Below, in pieces: positions 42,393 to 51,598 of a stretch of DNA of 64,000 nucleotides. The stretch comes from Pseudomonadota bacterium (GTDB lineage Bacteria; Pseudomonadota; Gammaproteobacteria; Poriferisulfidales; JAYYZZ01), in the NCBI GenBank assembly GCA_036687665.1, contig JAYYZZ010000003.1:132129-196128 (forward strand). The letters are read 5' to 3'. The notes below the pieces were generated by a model. That model was not told the DNA's origin. It saw only the letters and a list, made by a program, of their open reading frames with translations, and ran no database searches. The stretch's first letter is position 1. Every line of letters begins with the position of its first letter. Made by a program: the position numbers and the translations under genes.

Positions 42393-43013
42393 ATGAAATT
42401 AAGTAAAACACAGTACAGAGTGTTAAAAGCGTTTCAGAAGCATGTAGCAAAGCATGAATATTCTCCAACCCTCCAAGAACTTGGAGAAGAGGTTGGGATT
42501 TCGTCCAAAGGGACAATACACAGACATATCCAGGTTTTAATTGAGACAGGGTATTTAGCGTATAGCTCTTCCGGGTGGCGTAGTTTACAACTTGCGAACA
42601 CTGTTGGCTGGTTTGCTCCGACTCCACATAAAAAAGCATGTTTTCCCATCTTGGGGAGAATTGCAGCAGGTTTACCGATAGAGGCAATTGAGAATCAGGC
42701 AGAGCTAAATCTTACCGATGTTTTTGATGGTGAAGGGCGTTATATTTTAGAAGTAAGAGGCAACTCAATGGTGGATGCCGGAATTTTAGAAGGGGATATG
42801 GTTGTCATTGAGCGTCGCGATAGCGCAGATGATGGCAATATTGTTGTGGCAATTATTGATGGTTATGAAGCAACATTGAAGCGTTTGCGGTATCAAGCAG
42901 ACCGATCTATTGCCCTGGTTCCTGAGAACCAGAATATGCAGCCTATGGTATATGAACCTTCAAGAATTAATGTGCAAGGAGTATTAGTGGGGCAGTTTCG
43001 TAAATATGGATAA
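42393..43013 (+). CDS. lexA: LexA repressor (S24 autopeptidase)
   Basis: Winged-HTH N-domain, RIAAGLP cleavage site (Ala-Gly), GNSM catalytic Ser and TLKRL catalytic Lys. Confidence 0.88.
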   Translation: MKLSKTQYRVLKAFQKHVAKHEYSPTLQELGEEVGISSKGTIHRHIQVLIETGYLAYSSSGWRSLQLANTVGWFAPTPHKKACFPILGRIAAGLPIEAIENQAELNLTDVFDGEGRYILEVRGNSMVDAGILEGDMVVIERRDSADDGNIVVAIIDGYEATLKRLRYQADRSIALVPENQNMQPMVYEPSRINVQGVLVGQFRKYG

Positions 43014-44235
43014 TCAAAAAAACTGGGAAAGAGCCATTGTGTTTGTTGATATGGATGCATTCTTTGCATCGATTGAGCAGATGGATTTCCCAGAATTAAA
43101 AGGTAAGCCCATCTGTGTTACTAATGGAGAACAAGGAACCTGCATGATTACCTGTTCTTATGAAGCAAGAGCGTATGGATTGCATACAGGTATGAGGCTT
43201 AAAGAAGGAAGACGCCTATGCCCCCAATTAATACAACGCGCATCTAGGCCATCACGTTATGCAGAGATTTCAGCACGAATCATGCATACGTTACAGGATA
43301 TAACTCCAGATGTAGAAGTGTTTTCTGTAGACGAAGCTTTTTTGGATGTCACTAATTGTCAAAATTTACACGGATTGCCAGAACATATTGCCCGGCTAAC
43401 TAAAGAAAAGGTGCACCAGGTTTCTGGTCTAACGTGCTCAGTCGGAGTAAGCAGTGATAAAACTACTGCTAAATATGCGGCAAAGCGTGATAAACCTGAT
43501 GGTTTAACTGTCATTTATCCATGGGACGCAGAAGAGGAGCTTTCCAGTGTACTGGTGACTGAATTGAGCGGCATATCAGACGGCATAGGGGGGTTTTTAG
43601 CCAGCCGAGAGGTATATAAATGTGGCGACATGAAGAAGCTGCCTATTGGTGTATTGGCTAAACGTTTTGGTAATTTGGGTCGACGCATTTGGTATATGTG
43701 CCAGGCGCAAGACCCAGACAAAGTTATTACTACTGTGCCAGACCCAAAATCTATTGGACATGGAAAAGTTATGCCACCTAATACTAAAGATTCTGCTGTA
43801 GTGCGCATTTATTTGTTTCATATGGCCGAAAAAGTTTGTGCACGATTACGTAGGCATAGCATGCAAGCGAGTCAATTTTTTATTGGCCTGAAGACTGAGT
43901 TTGGATGGCTTGGCGGAAATTTTGAAGTTGCTCAACCTACTGATGACAGCCGCACACTACGAAAAATGTGTCGTGAGGTTATGCAAGAGTGTTGGCAATC
44001 AGAAGGCATTTATCAGGTGCAAATAACCGCACTTCACCCGTCCCCAAAAGATGGACAATTTGAGCTTTTCAGCGAAGATACAACGCAACAAGACTTGCTA
44101 AATGATGCGATTGATCGTATTAATTGCCGTTATGGCGATTTTACTATTGCCCCCGCTATTCTTCTTAATCGTTCATCTGCGCCAAATGTCATCGCCCCAG
44201 CATGGAAGCCACGCGGACATAGAAAATCGGTTTAA
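43006..44235 (+). CDS. dinB: Y-family DNA polymerase (DinB/Pol IV-like)
   Basis: FVDMDAFFASIEQ and SVDEAFLDVT catalytic motifs. The start overlaps the lexA stop by 8 nt (ATGGATAA). Confidence 0.88.
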   Translation: MDNQKNWERAIVFVDMDAFFASIEQMDFPELKGKPICVTNGEQGTCMITCSYEARAYGLHTGMRLKEGRRLCPQLIQRASRPSRYAEISARIMHTLQDITPDVEVFSVDEAFLDVTNCQNLHGLPEHIARLTKEKVHQVSGLTCSVGVSSDKTTAKYAAKRDKPDGLTVIYPWDAEEELSSVLVTELSGISDGIGGFLASREVYKCGDMKKLPIGVLAKRFGNLGRRIWYMCQAQDPDKVITTVPDPKSIGHGKVMPPNTKDSAVVRIYLFHMAEKVCARLRRHSMQASQFFIGLKTEFGWLGGNFEVAQPTDDSRTLRKMCREVMQECWQSEGIYQVQITALHPSPKDGQFELFSEDTTQQDLLNDAIDRINCRYGDFTIAPAILLNRSSAPNVIAPAWKPRGHRKSV

Positions 44236-44236
44236 A

Positions 44237-44314
44237 TGGCGCCCTGAGCAGGACTCGAACCTGCAACCTTCCCCTTAGGAGGGGGACGCGCTATCCAAAT
44301 TGTGCCATCAGGGC
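44237..44314 (-). tRNA. tRNA-Arg (anticodon CCT)
   Basis: The reverse complement folds with acceptor GCCCTGA/TCAGGGC, anticodon arm TCCCC-CTCCTAA-GGGGA, T arm GCAGG-TTCGAGT-CCTGC and encoded CCA. Confidence 0.9.
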
Positions 44315-45294: not shown

Positions 45295-45381
45295 TGGTGC
45301 CGGGAGAGAGACTTGAACTCTCACTCTGTTGCCAGAACCGGATTTTGAATCCGGCGCGTCTACCAGTTCCGCCACCCCGGC
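45295..45381 (-). tRNA. tRNA-Leu (anticodon CAA)
   Basis: The reverse complement is GCCGGGGTGGCGGAACTGGTAGACGC..CCGGA-TTCAAAA-TCCGG, with a long variable arm, T arm GAGAG-TTCAAGT-CTCTC and encoded CCA. Confidence 0.92.
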
Positions 45382-45762: not shown

Positions 45763-46764
45763 ATGTTGTTTAGAGTATTTCTCTTATGCGGCTTCTTATC
45801 AGCATGCGACCACTCTGCTCATGAGAATACTTTAATTTCAGGTATCACCATGGGTACGACGTATTCTGTCGAAATGACTCAGCACATACATGAGTTCGAG
45901 CTTAATGCGCTAGAAAGAGAAGTGGACAATCGCCTAGAAGAGATCAATGATAAATTTTCAACATATCAGAAAGATTCTGAGGTTAACCAACTAGGGAAGG
46001 CACCATGCTGCGAATGGGTTGATGTGTCGGATGAATTTTTTCAGTTACTCATAGAAAGCGTACGATTGAGTAAAATAACAAATGGTTATTTTGATTTTAC
46101 GATAGGTCGTTTAATTCACGCATGGGGGTTTGGCCCCGCCAACAAACGCCAAGATGTTTCATCTCTAGCAGAAATAGAAAAACTTGATGAAAATTATAGT
46201 TTTATAAAGACTGACGAGGCACGCTCGCGTGTTAAAAAACTTCAAGATGGTTTTTTATTGGACTTTTCTGCAATAGCAAAGGGGTATGCGGTTGATCAAA
46301 TTACACAAATATTAATTAACAACAATATATCTAACTTTCTCATCGAAATAGGAGGAGAAATTAGGGCTCATGGAAAAAATCGCAATAATTTTTGGTTGGT
46401 TGCTATAGAGCAGCCTTCACGAGATGTGGTTGGAGGCAGTGCAGGGCAAGTCGTGAAGCTGCATGACTGCGCAATTGCAACATCTGGCGACTACAAAAAC
46501 TTTGTTAGAAAAGGTGATCATCTTTATGGCCATATAATAAATCCAAAAACAAAAACACCAACCACTCACAAATTGGCGTCCGTCAGCGTTATTTCAACAA
46601 CAGCGGCGGAGGCAGATTCTCTAGCGACAGCTTTGTTTGCCATGGGGCCAAAAAAAGGTTTTGAGTTTGCCCAACAGCACTCAATCTCAGCATATTTTAT
46701 TAGCCGATCCGAAACGAGTTTTATTGATCAATATGCTAGTGATTTTGAAAAATACTTGAACTAA
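45763..46764 (+). CDS. apbE: FAD:protein FMN transferase ApbE (lipoprotein)
   Basis: Lipobox FLSAC. ApbE patterns GTTYSV, DFSAIAKGYAVD, AIATSGDY and ADSLATALF. Confidence 0.9.
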   Translation: MLFRVFLLCGFLSACDHSAHENTLISGITMGTTYSVEMTQHIHEFELNALEREVDNRLEEINDKFSTYQKDSEVNQLGKAPCCEWVDVSDEFFQLLIESVRLSKITNGYFDFTIGRLIHAWGFGPANKRQDVSSLAEIEKLDENYSFIKTDEARSRVKKLQDGFLLDFSAIAKGYAVDQITQILINNNISNFLIEIGGEIRAHGKNRNNFWLVAIEQPSRDVVGGSAGQVVKLHDCAIATSGDYKNFVRKGDHLYGHIINPKTKTPTTHKLASVSVISTTAAEADSLATALFAMGPKKGFEFAQQHSISAYFISRSETSFIDQYASDFEKYLN

Positions 46765-46765
46765 T

Positions 46766-47485
46766 TTAGCGGCTACCTCTAGACCAAAGCATAATCCCGG
46801 TAACAGCAAGCACCAGAAGCAGTAGAGATATAATGTCCATGAAGTAAATTCCAGCTTGCCCAAAGAATCTGCCACTGTGTAAATCTTGCATGAATCTTTC
46901 CCAGGTAATAATTCTTTTGAGAGAGTCTTTTTGTATATATCTTCCTAGATCATTGTCTATATTTCCTGCAGACACTGCTTTAGTAGGCGAATCTTTATAT
47001 TTAGAAATATTAAGAAAATCTTTATCGAACAACCAATTTTCATTAGACCCAAGAATTACAACTTCTCCTTTATTATTTATAGATAAACCCTGTACTGCGT
47101 CACTAACTTCATCTGTTAAATACAGTTCATCTATGAGTCTCCCGTTTTTTTCAGTTATATATATTTCACTAGCTGATGCTAAGATTATTTTCCCTTTTGT
47201 TTCAACGGCACCCGTCAATTCAAGAGCATCAACATAATCTAAGAATTGTTTGTCCAAATATGTTGAGCCATTGGCAAAGGTGACCCAATGGTTTTTTGTT
47301 TTAAAAGCTGTGACCGGCTGAGATTCAATCCCATAGATTTTTAGCAGCTGCTGGTTTGCCAGATAACTACTATCTAGGCGCAAATCATTTGAATGCTGTA
47401 GAAAAAATCCTGTAAACACAAGAAAAATCAATACCACGCTTACAGTGATGCCAGTTCTTTTATGCCATTTTAGAAGATTTGCCAT
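46766..47485 (-). CDS. PepSY-associated TM-helix protein (2-TM variant)
   Basis: The N-terminal LLKWHKRTGI..TM and C-terminal DLHSGRFFGQAG..TGIMLW segments are the typical PepSY_TM helices. A soluble domain of about 170 aa lies between them. Confidence 0.75.
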   Translation of the reverse strand: MANLLKWHKRTGITVSVVLIFLVFTGFFLQHSNDLRLDSSYLANQQLLKIYGIESQPVTAFKTKNHWVTFANGSTYLDKQFLDYVDALELTGAVETKGKIILASASEIYITEKNGRLIDELYLTDEVSDAVQGLSINNKGEVVILGSNENWLFDKDFLNISKYKDSPTKAVSAGNIDNDLGRYIQKDSLKRIITWERFMQDLHSGRFFGQAGIYFMDIISLLLLVLAVTGIMLWSRGSR

Positions 47486-47513
47486 CGATAATACGTCGCA
47501 CTATTGGTGTAAA

Positions 47514-48047
47514 TTAATTGTCTGGATTTTCCCTTATATAGGAATCTAAATATAAAGCAAGACTTGCAATTTTTTTTACCGCATTTACCGATAAAGTGGC
47601 TCCAGAAATATTGGTAATGTTTTTATTTAACTGGAAATTTTTGGTATGGGCGATGCCCTTAAATTGGTCAGAAAAGAAGTCATATTTTACTTCCCAGCCC
47701 CTGGTTTCTCTAAAAATCAGCACTTTCATCTTTGAAATTTTTGATTTTTCAACGACAAAGCCAGTTGTTATAAATTCATATTTTCCTATTTCTTCTAATA
47801 TCCATACACTTTTTTGTTCATTGGCCCAATATCTTACTCTAATCTTGTTCAGATCACGCCCAAGAATATCGTTTATATTTTTATTTATTTCATCATCGAG
47901 AAATAGGCTGGATGTTTGTGGAGCATTACCATTGAATGCTTGAGTAATAAATTCTTCAGGCAACTGGTAAACTTTTTTACCATGGACTATTGAAATTCCG
48001 AATGCATTAAGGAAAAAAATAATAAAAATTATTGATAGTTTTTTCAT
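47514..48047 (-). CDS. Secreted FMN_bind-domain protein with a flavinylation motif
   Basis: Signal peptide. The C-terminal NISGATLSVNAV contains SGAT (codons at 47595-47606, Thr151), which matches the ApbE acceptor motif [S/T]GA[T/S]. Confidence 0.8.
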   Translation of the reverse strand: MKKLSIIFIIFFLNAFGISIVHGKKVYQLPEEFITQAFNGNAPQTSSLFLDDEINKNINDILGRDLNKIRVRYWANEQKSVWILEEIGKYEFITTGFVVEKSKISKMKVLIFRETRGWEVKYDFFSDQFKGIAHTKNFQLNKNITNISGATLSVNAVKKIASLALYLDSYIRENPDN

Positions 48048-48055
48048 TTTATCCT

Positions 48056-48092
48056 GATAAAAAAACAGCAGACTAAATTATGCCTGCTGTTT
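48056..48092 (-). terminator. Rho-independent terminator after the porin gene
   Basis: The minus-strand RNA reads AAACAGCAG-12 nt-CUGCUGUUU followed by a run of U. It lies 27 nt past the porin stop and upstream of the FMN_bind start. Confidence 0.6.
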
Positions 48093-48118
48093 CTTATCTT
48101 TGTTAGCTTTTTGAAATA

Positions 48119-49330
48119 TTAGAACATGTAACCTATGCCAATATTGTATCCATCAGCATCTTTTGTGGCGCTGTCTGCAACATTATCATATTCAATGTCG
48201 TAGTAATCTACTTTGACTACAACCTTAGGATCAATCCACCAGTTGAAACCAATAGACTTCGTGTCAAACTCCGTAGAAGATTTTCCACCCTCGACACTCT
48301 CTGTGCGCACAAATACGCCAAACTTTGGAGTGATTTGCCAGCTTGGCTCAATGTAATAACCATCTTGATCATCATAAGACAAGCCATTTATTGTTCCTGC
48401 CCAATCGCTATCAGTATCGATATCCCATTCAGCGTACAGAGCTCTCAACCCAAATCCACTGGCATGTTCGTATACAACATGCGCTTCGAATAGGTCGCCA
48501 TCATCTACTGCGTCATTGCCCACTTGGCTCAAGTCGTCCTGATGTTGAAATGATGCAGCAAGTTCTAACCCAGGTATTCCTGTGTATTTCAATCTAGCTG
48601 TTGTTGCCCAATGACTTGCGTCTGCGTTTCCTGTTTTTTGGCGACAGCCTCTTATGTCTACTTCACCGCCTGAGACTGTACATTTTAGACCTTCATGAAA
48701 TGCTAAATCAGCTGTAAAACCTTCGCCAAAGTTTTGGGTTATGCCAACACCACCTGCCCACCATGTTGCAGGCACGATCTTAGCTTCCACATTATTTCTT
48801 TCCACACCGTAGAATGTAGGGGGTTCGTGTGTCTCATTCATAATACCGATAGGTATTAAAAACAAACCACCGCGTACCGTGGTGTTGTCAAACAGGTCAT
48901 ACTCAACATATGCTTGCTCAAGCTCGATTTCACCAGCTTTCCCTTCTCCCGCTATACTATGTTCTAGCTCAAATTCTGAAAAGAAACGCAATCTATCTGA
49001 GTATTCATAATTTACAAAAGATACAAAGCGATGGAAGTCTAATTTATCAGTATCTGATGCGGTAACTTTTGCTTCAAGATTGTTGTAATGTAATTCCCCG
49101 TATCCACCGAACGAAATCTTGTCTTGGCCCCGAGGTCTTGATGAAAAAGACTCCACTGCTGTGATAGTTTTTTCACCCATTTTTTCCGCCGCATCAAGTC
49201 TTTTTAAGACCATGGAAAGTTGCTTTTCTAATTGTGCTATTCGTTCCTTGTCTGTTTGAGCTAATACTTGCCCACTTGAGACGAAAAACATAAAAGCAGA
49301 AACTGCGGTCATTATTGCCCTTAGTTTCAT
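48119..49330 (-). CDS. Outer-membrane beta-barrel porin with an N-terminal coiled-coil segment
   Basis: Signal peptide (..VLAQT), a coiled coil (ERIAQLEKQLSMVLKRLDAAEK), alternating beta-strand pattern, and a C-terminal YNIGIGYMF ending in Phe. Confidence 0.75.
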   Translation of the reverse strand: MKLRAIMTAVSAFMFFVSSGQVLAQTDKERIAQLEKQLSMVLKRLDAAEKMGEKTITAVESFSSRPRGQDKISFGGYGELHYNNLEAKVTASDTDKLDFHRFVSFVNYEYSDRLRFFSEFELEHSIAGEGKAGEIELEQAYVEYDLFDNTTVRGGLFLIPIGIMNETHEPPTFYGVERNNVEAKIVPATWWAGGVGITQNFGEGFTADLAFHEGLKCTVSGGEVDIRGCRQKTGNADASHWATTARLKYTGIPGLELAASFQHQDDLSQVGNDAVDDGDLFEAHVVYEHASGFGLRALYAEWDIDTDSDWAGTINGLSYDDQDGYYIEPSWQITPKFGVFVRTESVEGGKSSTEFDTKSIGFNWWIDPKVVVKVDYYDIEYDNVADSATKDADGYNIGIGYMF

Positions 49331-49356
49331 TGTCTACTCCTTATTTGCAATTCATA

Positions 49357-49385
49357 TTGACATTAATATTGATAGTCATTATCAT
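49357..49385 (+). promoter_or_regulatory. Promoter TTGACA-17-TATCAT reading toward the 97-aa ORF and the MCO
   Basis: Hexamers and spacing read directly. The spacer and the -10 are covered by the Fur box. Confidence 0.5.
49365..49383. promoter_or_regulatory. Fur box
   Basis: AATATTGATAGTCATTATC matches 16 of 19 positions of the consensus GATAATGATAATCATTATC. Confidence 0.7.
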
Positions 49386-49406
49386 TTGTATTAGTATTAA
49401 TGTCAA
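49378..49406 (-). promoter_or_regulatory. Promoter TTGACA-17-GATAAT reading toward the porin operon
   Basis: On the minus strand, TTGACA is the complement of 49401-06 and GATAAT is the complement of 49378-83. The -10 is the first hexamer of the Fur box. An AAGGAG SD precedes the porin ATG. Confidence 0.5.
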
Positions 49407-49428
49407 GGCTTAGAAAGGAGTAGTTTTA

Positions 49429-49722
49429 GTGAGTGCATATATAAATTATGTGAAACCTAGAAAGGGATGTGAGAGCACCTGCGGCAGTTGCAGCAGAAGA
49501 AAGGTCAATTTTAACCCCTCAAATAAAGCAGAAATTATTGATGCGTTAAAAGCAGACCTAACACAAATGTCATTAGCTTTGTGTGAGCCAGAGGAGACAG
49601 TCTTGCAAGCTATCAACAACCATGAGCTTTTAATAGGCACCTACGAAGATAAATTTGGCAACAAGCATCTTTATTTAGAGTATCAAGATGTCGGGATTAT
49701 GGCGCCTATAGCTGGACACTGA
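49429..49722 (+). CDS. Hypothetical 97-aa protein with a CxxxCxxC motif
   Basis: GTG start 8 nt after an AAAGGAG SD. C14-x3-C18-x2-C21 is encoded at 49468-49491. I recognise no family. Confidence 0.5.
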   Translation: MSAYINYVKPRKGCESTCGSCSRRKVNFNPSNKAEIIDALKADLTQMSLALCEPEETVLQAINNHELLIGTYEDKFGNKHLYLEYQDVGIMAPIAGH

Positions 49723-49729
49723 GTTCGCT

Positions 49730-49752
49730 GAGTCTTCACTCTAGGAAGACTC
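49730..49752 (+). terminator. Hairpin GAGTCTTC-ACTCTAG-GAAGACTC after the 97-aa ORF (possible attenuator or terminator)
   Basis: Perfect 8-bp stem with a 7-nt loop, 8 nt after the stop. No U-tract follows, so it is not a canonical intrinsic terminator. Confidence 0.35.
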
Positions 49753-49839
49753 TGTGCTGATGTAAAGTAGCAGGCCAAATAACTTCCTCTCTTCATATGC
49801 TTGCTACTTTCATCTGAACATAAGATGCCAATATACATC

Positions 49840-50928
49840 ATGAAATATACTTTACATTTTCTTATCGCTTGTTCTTTCATGCTTTCATCCTTTAGCGTGA
49901 ATGGTAAAGAGCGTGTTCATTTTATTGCTGCCGAAGAGGTTTACTGGGAGTATTTGCCCCAAGGTCAAAATATCATGATGGGCAGAGGAATAGATGAGGA
50001 CGAGGAAGTTTTCACTAAAAATACGTCGCACTTGATTGGCTCAAAATACAAAAAAGCTATCTATCGTGCATACACAGATGCATCATTTACAAAACGTGTT
50101 AAACGCCCAGAGAAATGGGAACATTTAGGCATTTTAGGCCCAGTGATTCACGCTGAGGTTGGAGACAATATAAAAGTTATTTTCAAAAATAAAGCTAGCC
50201 GATCTTATAGCATGCACCCGCACGGTGTATTTTATAAAAAAGATTCAGAAGGCGCACCCTATAACGATAAAACGTCTGGTGCTGACAAAAAGGATGATTC
50301 TGTTTCTCCTGGTGACACCTATGTATACAACTGGGATGTCCCAGAAACTGCAGGTCCTGCTAGCAATGATAGCAGCTCAGTAGGATGGCTATACCATTCT
50401 CATGTTAATGAAATTCGAGATACGAATACAGGTTTAGTTGGCGCAATAATTGTAACATCTGCCGGAAAGGCACGAAAAGACGGCACCCCCGCAGATGTTG
50501 ATACAGAGTTTATCAATTTGTTTACAGTAATGAATGAAAATGAAAGCTGGTATTTACAGAACAATATTGCTGAATTTGCAAAAGACCCATCGAATGCCAT
50601 GTCAAATGAAGATTTTGAAGAAAGCAATTTAATGCATACAATCAATGGCTATGTTTTTGGCAATGTTCCCAGCTTGATAGCAAAACAGGGTACCCGTGTA
50701 CGATGGTATACCATGGCTTTAGGAACAGAAGTAGATCTACACTCGCCTCATTGGCACGGGAATACCGGCATTAGCCACGGCAACAGAATCGATGTTGTTA
50801 GCTTAATACCAGCACAAACGATCACAGTGGATATGATACCCAATAACCCTGGAATATGGATGTATCATTGCCATGTAAATGATCATTTAGCTGCTGGAAT
50901 GACGGCCTTGTATGAAGTGACTAAATAA
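49840..50928 (+). CDS. Secreted two-domain multicopper oxidase, ceruloplasmin/hephaestin-like
   Basis: Copper motifs HPHG, WLYHSH, HSPHWHG and YHCHVNDHLAAGM. Signal peptide MKYTLHFLIACSFMLSSFSVNG. Alternative starts are ATG 49825 and TTG 49801. Confidence 0.85.
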   Translation: MKYTLHFLIACSFMLSSFSVNGKERVHFIAAEEVYWEYLPQGQNIMMGRGIDEDEEVFTKNTSHLIGSKYKKAIYRAYTDASFTKRVKRPEKWEHLGILGPVIHAEVGDNIKVIFKNKASRSYSMHPHGVFYKKDSEGAPYNDKTSGADKKDDSVSPGDTYVYNWDVPETAGPASNDSSSVGWLYHSHVNEIRDTNTGLVGAIIVTSAGKARKDGTPADVDTEFINLFTVMNENESWYLQNNIAEFAKDPSNAMSNEDFEESNLMHTINGYVFGNVPSLIAKQGTRVRWYTMALGTEVDLHSPHWHGNTGISHGNRIDVVSLIPAQTITVDMIPNNPGIWMYHCHVNDHLAAGMTALYEVTK

Positions 50929-50990
50929 CTTTTCTATTTTTTCTTTAAATATTGCCAAATTCAGGACTCTTAAAACTGATTTAGTGTCGA

Positions 50991-51010
50991 AATTCGCGTA
51001 GAATTCGCGT
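50991..51010 (+). repeat. Tandem direct repeat AATTCGCGT x2 (11-bp period)
   Basis: AATTCGCGT-AG-AATTCGCGT read directly, 29 nt upstream of the cytochrome c start. A degenerate third GAATTT follows. Confidence 0.5.
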
Positions 51011-51038
51011 TTGAATTTATAAAGAGAGCGGAGTTTTT

Positions 51039-51344
51039 TTGAAACAGCGTAATTTGACATATTTTTTTACTTTATGTGCTTTTATCATGCCATTTAATTT
51101 GCATGCAGATACCGGTGAGGAGATTTACAATGCCGTTTGTTTCGCATGCCATAATTCAGGCGTAATGGGATCACCGAAAATTGACGATAAAGAATATTGG
51201 GCTAAAGAGGTCAAAGAAGAGGGTTTAGATCATCTTTACCAGGCTGCTATCAATGGTAAGGGTGGCATGCCTCCAAAAGGTGGGCGTGCAGATTTATCTG
51301 ATGAGCAGGTTAAAGCAGCAGTTGATTTTATGGTTAAGCAATAA
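51039..51344 (+). CDS. Class I c-type cytochrome (c5-like)
   Basis: Signal peptide, CFACHNSG heme motif and a distal GGMPPKG Met ligand region. TTG start 5 nt after a GGAG SD. Confidence 0.85.
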
Positions 51345-51598
51345 TGGTTACTATTCGTTTAGCGAGAGGTGGTGTAAAAAAAAGACCTTTCTACCATATC
51401 GTGGTAACCGATTCTCGCAAAAGACGTGATAGCTCATACATAGAGCGGCTGGGATTTTTTAATCCCATCGCCTCAGGAGAGGAAGTGCGTCTTAAGATCG
51501 ACCATGAGAGGATCCAACATTGGGTCGGCAATGGGGCCCAAATTAGCGATCGAGTAAATAGCCTTATCAAAGAAGACCAAAAAACGAAAACAGTCTAA
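51344..51598 (+). CDS. rpsP: 30S ribosomal protein S16
   Basis: [24 protein letters not shown]-type N-terminus. Confidence 0.97.

Follow-up and report, generated by a model that had tools for sequence, protein, structure and literature searches.

A flavinylated 'PepSY-like' class, comprising 3220 gene clusters mostly with DUF2271 and DUF4198, was described by Meheust et al. (2021; eLife, PMC8238504), who suggested that it reduces iron and pointed to repression by Fur in Shewanella and Caulobacter. The electrons of flavinylated NqrC/RnfG-type domains usually flow outward (PMC8238504). PepSY_TM relatives act in the periplasm as heme-dependent reductases (PMC13038864, PMC8238504). FoxB, FpvG, FsrB, HiuB and CrpH, as well as the related VciB and FrcB, were all modelled with at least four transmembrane (TM) segments, and the genes for FoxB and HiuB adjoin TonB-dependent receptors (PMC13038864). 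Here we describe an iron locus at 45763-51344 of a 64-kb window (the whole stretch of DNA that was analysed; all coordinates are window positions). In this locus, the genes for a porin, an FMN_bind protein and a two-TM PepSY_TM protein, together termed the triad, lie between an ApbE gene and a divergent group consisting of a small orphan open reading frame (ORF), a ceruloplasmin-like multicopper oxidase (MCO) gene and a cytochrome c gene (Table 1). We hold with moderate confidence that these genes form three units side by side, namely a Fur-repressed triad with ApbE, the small ORF with the MCO gene, and the cytochrome c gene with rpsP. As judged from its sequence features, the triad most likely encodes a TonB-independent periplasmic reductase of ferric iron or ferric chelates.

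Like members of the flavinylated PepSY-like class, the triad combines a PF03929/PF16357 gene with the gene for an ApbE substrate, here accompanied by ApbE itself, and it falls within the operational definition of the class (PMC8238504). Fur or iron regulation and a proposed function in extracytosolic iron reduction and assimilation are further points of likeness. The triad differs in its NqrC-like FMN_bind substrate, its porin and its half-size membrane protein, whose periplasmic part is not a PepSY domain. The usual partners DUF2271 and DUF4198 were absent from the window proteins in a profile search. On these domain assignments, the triad is a distinct variant within the predicted flavinylated PepSY-like iron-reductase class. 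The so1188-so1189-so1190 operon of Shewanella oneidensis, which is Fur- and iron-regulated and functionally uncharacterised in the searched literature, was considered as a characterised orthologue and rejected. The operon is an example of the PepSY-like class but has the other architecture, as it lacks a porin and the annotation of so1190 is that of an ABC-type Co2+ periplasmic component. Porins and multicopper oxidases are not mentioned in the main texts of the flavinylation papers (PMC8238504 and another), and a full-text literature search returned no paper on the combination of flavin triad, porin and MCO. An earlier interpretation of this DNA, made without database searches and here called the sequence-only reading, had not recognised the combination of genes as a described system. 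The literature search agrees for the combination, whereas a flavinylated PepSY-like iron-reduction class had already been defined bioinformatically (PMC8238504).

The membrane protein of the triad shares PepSY_TM-type helices and conserved histidines, by prediction on both membrane faces, with FoxB (structure 7ABW), FpvG, FsrB, HiuB and CrpH, and their periplasmic reduction of metals or ferrisiderophores resembles the role predicted for the triad. It differs from them in that one chain has only two TM helices, where theirs have four or more, and in having a propeller-blade-like domain instead of a PepSY domain, and porin and flavoprotein partners instead of a TonB-dependent receptor. The flavoprotein resembles NqrC and RnfG, its closest structural matches, in its FMN_bind domain and its [S/T]GA[T/S] threonine acceptor. 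Unlike these, it is a stand-alone secreted protein of 177 residues and not an NQR or RNF subunit, and identity in the structural matches was 14-20%.

Conservation and iron context of the triad

The FMN_bind family alignment was searched against one genome per GTDB species (scan pattern I[ST]GATLSV), and the family was found in at least 582 species. The best 80 of these, each with 10 kb of flanking DNA to either side, were taken as triad loci. The porin gene was located immediately upstream of the FMN_bind gene in 76 of the 80 loci, and the PepSY_TM gene was downstream of it, likewise in 76/80. In approximately 10 loci, one or both of the porin and PepSY_TM genes went undetected, and roughly half of these loci end at a contig edge. 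ApbE adjoined the triad in 8/80 loci. Carriers were mostly Gammaproteobacteria, including eight Shewanella species, with others in the Alpha-, Beta- and Zetaproteobacteria and the Verrucomicrobiota.

For 68 loci, the 250-bp region ahead of the porin gene was searched for Fur-like boxes. A site with at most five mismatches was present in 32 of these (47%), versus 2.0% of control windows. When compared with dinucleotide shuffles of each upstream region, 31/68 loci had boxes at p ≤ 0.05 (3.4 expected, approximately 9-fold) and 13/68 at p ≤ 0.01. By its gene order and upstream boxes, the triad is a conserved, Fur-linked operon and a real unit, whose three genes are presumably co-transcribed. The sequence-only reading had placed all genes of the locus in one iron-responsive island and had suggested gene-neighbourhood conservation as a check. 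The co-occurrence of the porin, FMN_bind and PepSY_TM genes and their Fur boxes bear out one part of that island, whereas the MCO gene, found in 0/80 triad loci, and the cytochrome c gene are not conserved neighbours.

Clustering of the genes surrounding the triad yielded bacterioferritin (19/80 loci), an ATP-binding cassette (ABC) ATPase (19/80) and an FbpA-like binding protein (11/80). In one locus (L021), the porin, FMN_bind, PepSY_TM, FbpA, FbpB and FbpC genes are on one strand. In another (L035), a FecCD-type permease, an ATPase and an apparent TonB-dependent receptor, the latter judged by eye, are downstream of the triad. In about one relative in four, genes for FbpABC or FecCD/E-type ABC importers come directly after the triad. 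In the window, the precomputed Pfam annotation of called genes contained no member of the iron permease families Ftr1, EfeU and FeoB within 10 kb on either side. Since relatives carry iron ABC importers beside the triad, the missing permease is particular to this genome. The earlier remark that no permease is nearby is therefore accurate here but does not extend to the relatives. The proposal that a porin takes the place of a TonB-dependent receptor agrees with the porin adjoining FMN_bind in 76/80 triad loci.

Predicted functions of ApbE and the triad proteins

The PepSY_TM protein matched PF16357 with 37.7 bits and PF03929 with 49.6 bits (cut-off 28.8), the latter over model positions 177-293 of 295 only, which is the second half of the model. 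Its AlphaFold2 model (predicted local distance difference test, pLDDT, 89.7) has TM helices at residues 2-30 and 210-238 with an 11-strand periplasmic domain between them. The Foldseek matches of this domain were propeller blades of the NHL, hemopexin and WD40 types, and a PDB sequence search with the protein gave no match. The description of the protein as two-TM and PepSY-type in the sequence-only reading holds for the two helices and the PepSY_TM profile match but not for the periplasmic domain, which is propeller-like. H8, H31 and H203 are invariant in the family alignment A3 and in 77 sequences; they mark the two ends of TM1 and the approach to TM2. These positions suit axial heme ligands, and the protein is a putative di-heme transmembrane electron conduit. 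A single chain contributes two TM helices and no four-helix bundle. A presumed homodimer would rebuild the FoxB-like bundle of four helices and two hemes, and its periplasmic part would perhaps form a six-bladed pseudo-propeller.

The FMN_bind protein (PF04205, 29.6 bits versus a cut-off of 22) has an N-terminal signal sequence that ends after VHG, before K. In its acceptor motif S148-G-A-T151, the residues G149, A150 and T151 are invariant among 24 sequences, as is S153, and the residue before G149 is Ser or Thr. Thr151 had already been named as the flavin acceptor from the window alone. The AlphaFold2 model (pLDDT 83.6) had NqrC (8a1t_C, E 5.5e-4; 4xa7) and RnfG (7zc6_G, 8rb9_G) as top Foldseek matches, each with a probability of 1.0.

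ApbE matched PF02424 at full length (262.6 bits, model positions 1-266 of 266). With the NCBIfam ApbE model, residues 8-332 were aligned at a score of 206.9, below the equivalog cut-off of 498, and the protein is thus a member of the ApbE family and not an equivalog of the E. coli protein. Its lipobox (L12-S-A-C15) exists if translation starts at 45763, while the start chosen by gene callers, Met30 (29 codons later), removes it. The start codon is uncertain because the callers begin at Met30; no strong ribosome-binding site precedes either start. The ApbE and PepSY_TM genes are convergent, with a gap of 1 bp. From its family and position, ApbE is presumed to be the flavinylase of the neighbouring FMN_bind protein.

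The porin on its own gave a weak Porin_O_P match, and 24 of 26 family members matched Porin_O_P (best E 9e-14). It has an N-terminal coiled coil and a C-terminal Phe. PDB searches with the porin sequence and with a 26-sequence profile returned nothing meaningful. Residues G75, G76, Y77, E79, H81, N83, E119, E121, E123 and H124 are invariant, together with a motif spanning N165-R178, and they form Glu/His-rich motifs (GGYGELHYNN, ExExEH and NETHEPxTFYGVERN; alignment A4). We speculate from these motifs that the porin is cation- rather than anion-selective and perhaps a channel for metal cations.

Together, these features suggest the following mechanism. At low iron, Fur would leave the shared operator, and the Glu/His-rich porin would admit small Fe(III) species. 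The two-TM protein, as a homodimer with a four-helix, two-heme bundle, would draw electrons from the cytoplasmic face of the membrane and conduct them into the periplasm, where they would pass to flavin mononucleotide (FMN) covalently attached by ApbE to Thr151 of the NqrC-like protein. The bound flavin would then reduce Fe(III), and the released iron would be imported by transporters encoded elsewhere in this genome. The MCO may re-oxidise or detoxify Fe(II), not as an obligate partner of the triad.

The shared promoter and the plus-strand genes

The sequence AATATTGATAGTCATTATC at 49365-49383 agrees with the 19-bp Fur consensus at 16/19 positions. As the sequence-only reading had stated, this box is present in the 98-bp spacer, and it is the only site in 64 kb with such a match (0.03 expected); when the spacer was dinucleotide-shuffled 1000 times, 16/19 was never attained. 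Two sigma-70-like promoter sites overlap it, TTGACA-17-TATCAT on the plus strand (49357-49385) and TTGACA-17-GATAAT on the minus strand (49406-49378), both with 11/12 matches. The Fur box covers the -10 hexamers of both sites and is situated within an inverted repeat with 18-nt arms (89% complementary), the ends of which are the two -35 hexamers. Since the box lies over both -10 hexamers, a single predicted operator could silence transcription in both directions, as far as consensus matches indicate. The spacer is also roughly symmetrical between its two ribosome-binding sites (CTACTCCTT ... AAGGAGTAG), with mirrored -35 boxes surrounding the Fur box.

Table 1. Features of the iron locus, with positions in the 64-kb window.
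Feature	Position	Strand	Basis or remark
ApbE-family FAD:protein FMN transferase, predicted lipoprotein	45763-46764	+	PF02424, LSAC lipobox in the long form
Inner-membrane PepSY_TM protein, 239 residues	46766-47485	-	PF03929 and PF16357
Secreted NqrC/RnfG-like FMN_bind protein, 177 residues	47514-48047	-	PF04205, SGAT motif
Outer-membrane porin, 403 residues, first gene of the triad operon	48119-49330	-	Porin_O_P family matches
Spacer between porin and small ORF, 98 bp	49331-49428		divergent promoter region
Palindromic divergent promoter	49357-49406	both	two sigma-70-like sites, shared -10 region
Fur box, 16/19	49365-49383	+	consensus match
Small orphan ORF, 97 residues from GTG	49429-49722	+	AAGGAG ribosome-binding site
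Two-domain ceruloplasmin-like MCO	49801 (or ATG 49876)-50928	+	ceruloplasmin similarity
Class I c-type cytochrome	51039-51344	+	PF13442, CFACH

Every gene and motif of the earlier inventory was recovered from the ORF list and profile searches. Identical sequence was present in several marine metagenome assemblies and in one metagenome-assembled genome labelled Pseudomonadota bacterium. Gene callers on the identical contigs let four of the genes, those for ApbE, the small ORF, the MCO and the cytochrome, begin further downstream and so encode shorter proteins.

The MCO probably starts at ATG 49876, and this shorter form (MKYTL...) carries a Sec signal peptide. In a phmmer comparison, the MCO matched ceruloplasmin with E 1e-243, each of the three two-domain repeats aligning end to end at approximately E 1e-80, whereas two-domain laccases of the Streptomyces (SLAC) type were matched at E 1e-12 only. 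Identity to the repeats of vertebrate HEPHL1 (hephaestin-like) was 42-43%. The protein is a single two-domain unit of approximately 350 residues and not a six-domain chain. Its bacterial family (360-380 residues, 55-67% identical) is common in metagenomes from sea and soil, and Colwellia, Psychrobium, Oceanicoccus and Rhodopseudomonas have members as well. The T1 copper ligands H314, C357, H362 and M367 and the trinuclear ligands H139, H141, H199, H201, H317, H319, H356 and H358 are invariant among 24 sequences. In ceruloplasmin, the Fe(II) site is formed by E935, H940, D1025 and E272/E971 (PMC3738974). The aligned MCO residues, E274, H279, D361 and E310, are all invariant. The MCO thus resembles ceruloplasmin, hephaestin and Chlamydomonas FOX1 in its T1 and trinuclear ligands and four Fe(II)-site residues, and differs in having two domains instead of six and in being a bacterial, Sec-secreted, soluble protein. 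Because the two-domain chain holds both halves of the trinuclear site, it must oligomerise, most likely as a homotrimer that would build the trinuclear centres as in SLAC-type two-domain MCOs. A predicted ferroxidase function, already suggested by the sequence-only reading, is strengthened by these residues and is well founded on sequence.

The family (alignment A2; loci L089-L091) is also far nearer to factor V/VIII A domains, ceruloplasmin and hephaestin than to known bacterial two-domain laccases. It could represent the two-domain ancestor type or an inter-kingdom transfer. Such two-domain bacterial proteins were not reported in a 2013 phylogeny of six-domain blue copper proteins.

The neighbourhoods of 85 MCO loci were clustered de novo. 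No conserved partner was found; the largest clusters, each covering 5 loci, were of generic ABC and two-component type. Transposases of the Tn3 and insertion sequence (IS) kinds surround the closest homologue (67% identity). Fur-like boxes upstream of the MCO gene were near chance (7/80 at p ≤ 0.05, median p 0.46), although a few loci have a strong box, such as L133 with its 2 mismatches. Of the 85 loci, 2 (L100 and L146) contain porin, ApbE or FMN_bind genes, and both come from one distant high-GC metagenomic lineage. On one strand of L100 (4128-9065), genes for ApbE, a coiled-coil porin, FMN_bind, a four-TM His-containing protein and the MCO are adjoined by ferritin and an FbpC-like ATPase. 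The four-TM His-rich membrane protein belongs to no Pfam family and is not a PepSY_TM protein. L146 (6119-13605) has an FbpB-like permease, a porin-MCO pair and an FMN_bind-ApbE pair. Flavin module, porin and predicted ferroxidase thus recur independently in this lineage, with another membrane partner. On these neighbourhoods, the MCO is a lineage-specific neighbour and not a regular partner of the triad, and it is probably under Fur control in the window only through its position. The earlier proposal of a reductive and an oxidative arm in one system was not borne out as a conserved arrangement (0/80 triad loci; 2/85 MCO loci, one lineage).

The small ORF encodes a C14xxxC18xxC21 motif, and callers annotate a 51-residue version. 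It matched no Pfam, NCBIfam or PHROG family and gave weak repeat matches without an informative Pfam family; approximately four relatives were found among 1.84 billion representative proteins. A homologue was present in 2/80 triad loci (L042:1026-1301 and L051:6600-6875; 91 residues each), 2-7 kb from the triad, and the PepSY_TM proteins of both loci are among those most similar to the one in the window. Homology extends upstream of the 51-residue start, which supports the 97-residue form. Each of the two copies has its own near-perfect Fur box, and the copy in L051 is directly upstream of fur (L051:6600-7698). Given these boxes in the relatives, the Fur-controlled plus-strand promoter looks native to the small ORF, with the MCO gene placed behind it. 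The ORF looks like a tiny, lineage-restricted gene of the Fur regulon. A reading as a metal-binding CxxxCxxC protein was rejected, the motif singled out by the sequence-only reading being absent from both full-length relatives. A 54-residue ORF upstream of the closest MCO homologue was considered as a further relative and found to be unrelated (by eye, it resembles a transposase fragment).

The cytochrome c matched PF13442 (64.8 bits) and contains a CFACH motif. Its long form, with a TTG start, has a GGAG ribosome-binding site and gains a signal peptide. The gene is followed by rpsP, rimM, trmD and rplS in this order, and its stop codon overlaps the rpsP start (TAATG, 51342-51346). A cytochrome c gene was near the triad in 1/80 loci, approximately 10 kb away, and beside the MCO in none of the 85 MCO loci. 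The gene probably belongs to the rpsP-rimM-trmD-rplS operon and not to an iron module, contrary to its earlier assignment. Judging by the TAATG overlap, translation of a periplasmic cytochrome may be coupled to that of a ribosomal operon, which would be an unusual arrangement.

To the left of ApbE, tRNA-Arg(CCT) (44237-44314) and tRNA-Leu(CAA) (45295-45381), both on the minus strand, flank a NUDIX gene and a 146-residue membrane ORF. The GC (guanine-cytosine) content of this tRNA-flanked region was not anomalous and no integrase was seen in it. An Rfam scan of 44-52.5 kb found two tRNAs and nothing else, and a plasmid megablast with the whole region gave no match. At 42393-44235, a lexA homologue (LexA_DNA_bind and Peptidase_S24) overlaps a Y-family DNA polymerase gene (IMS/IMS_C) by 8 bp, and the pair is a compact SOS mutagenesis cassette.

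Alternative readings and significance

Several observations weigh against the reading of three adjacent units with a ferric-reductase triad. Neither PepSY nor FoxB was among the Foldseek matches of the PepSY_TM protein model. With a non-PepSY periplasmic domain and no fold match to FoxB, the analogy to FoxB extends to the TM helices only, and heme binding, dimerisation, electron donor, direction of electron flow and substrate of the triad are predictions. The searched literature contained no biochemically characterised member of this architecture or of the PepSY-like type of PMC8238504. FbpABC importers, such as those beside the triad in relatives, carry Fe(III), an awkward fit with a pure reductase. 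As for the MCO, a functional link to the triad would be in keeping with the shared Fur operator in the window and with the plus strand, on which no terminator-like site was found from the promoter to the MCO gene. L100 and L146 place ApbE, porin, FMN_bind and MCO genes together near iron genes, and adjacency of genes says little about whether their products work together.

The sequence-only reading had joined the parts into a single model with a reductive and an oxidative arm. In its full form, a flavin/PepSY_TM reductase and a ferroxidase under one Fur switch would reduce and then re-oxidise iron that enters through the porin, and Fe(III) would be passed to an Fbp-type importer or another permease. 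Such a system would correspond in bacteria to yeast Fre1-Fet3-Ftr1 or algal FRE1-FOX1-FTR1. This model is favoured by the single Fur box over both divergent -10 hexamers, the lack of a terminator-like site on the plus strand from promoter to MCO gene, the invariant copper ligands and ceruloplasmin-type Fe-site residues of the MCO, the Fe(III) ABC importers directly downstream of the triad in relatives, and the joining of flavin genes, porin and MCO beside iron storage and transport genes in L100 and L146. Precedents exist in yeast, algae and cyanobacteria (PMC7676907), the last with a proposed porin-mediated entry of inorganic iron. With yeast Fre1-Fet3-Ftr1 and the cyanobacterial porin/ARTO/FutABC model, the locus would share non-specific reduction of ferric chelates, specific uptake and an optional re-oxidation. 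The locus differs in having no Ftr1, EfeU or FeoB in the annotated genes within 10 kb, in a reductase whose flavin and heme are split over two proteins, and in a reductase-oxidase pairing that is not conserved. We regard the single model as unlikely because the MCO gene was absent from all 80 triad loci, flavin or porin neighbours occurred in just 2/85 MCO loci of one lineage, and L100 has another kind of membrane partner, which is not a PepSY protein. Additionally, the MCO has no conserved neighbour, its closest family member is transposon cargo, its upstream regions are not generally Fur-boxed, and no permease is within 10 kb here.

A fuller version of this model, a TonB-independent, high-affinity pathway of reduction and re-oxidation, would comprise a cation-selective porin, the flavinylated NqrC-like protein with a half-size PepSY_TM cytochrome, a trimeric ceruloplasmin-type ferroxidase and an Fbp-type importer; we consider it somewhat more doubtful still. 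If true, the pathway would be a prokaryotic counterpart, and in its oxidase step possibly an evolutionary relative, of fungal and algal Fre-Fet3/FOX1-Ftr1, and all of its parts would be encoded together in two cases, the window and the L100/L146 lineage.

We give little credence to the reading that the triad reduces a substrate other than iron, for example Cu(II) to Cu(I) for cuproenzymes, as has been proposed for CrpH, to the benefit of the MCO and a cytochrome c/oxidase chain. The PepSY_TM protein CrpH does serve copper and heme-copper oxidase function (PMC13038864), and a Sec-exported MCO in need of periplasmic copper and a c-type cytochrome adjoin the triad. However, all models in the CrpH paper have at least four TM segments, while the window protein is a half-size two-TM form with another periplasmic domain. 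Neither the MCO nor the cytochrome c gene is a conserved neighbour, and the conserved upstream sites are Fur boxes and not copper-responsive operators, with bacterioferritin and iron ABC importers as the neighbours in relatives.

Most carriers live in oxic marine settings, where Fe(II) is scarce, and this counts against a reversed flow. That reading, in which the flavoprotein oxidises Fe(II) or another reductant admitted by the porin, electrons run inward via the hemes and Fe(III) goes to Fbp importers, as in a flavin-based counterpart of a ferroxidase, is highly improbable: it fits the FbpABC Fe(III) importers immediately downstream in approximately 11/80 relatives and the flavin module beside a ferroxidase in L100, but characterised PepSY_TM relatives are periplasmic reductases and flavinylated NqrC/RnfG-type domains usually send electrons outward (PMC8238504).

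The MCO, a two-domain bacterial protein with a full ferroxidase site, is relevant to the long-standing proposal that ceruloplasmin and the A domains of coagulation factors V and VIII descend from a trimeric protein of two domains. As a predicted ferric reductase in a unit of its own, the triad would be the first flavin-linked half-size PepSY_TM reductase with a propeller-like periplasmic domain and a dedicated porin. It is present in at least 582 species and has Fur-type boxes, and no experimental study of it was found in the searched literature. Its culturable carriers include Kangiella sediminilitoris, Pelagicoccus and several members of Shewanella, among them S. colwelliana (ATCC 39565) and S. 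atlantica. Bacteria of the sea and other environments also acquire iron that is inorganic or weakly complexed without the help of siderophore receptors, by routes that are poorly understood, and for these the triad is a candidate answer.

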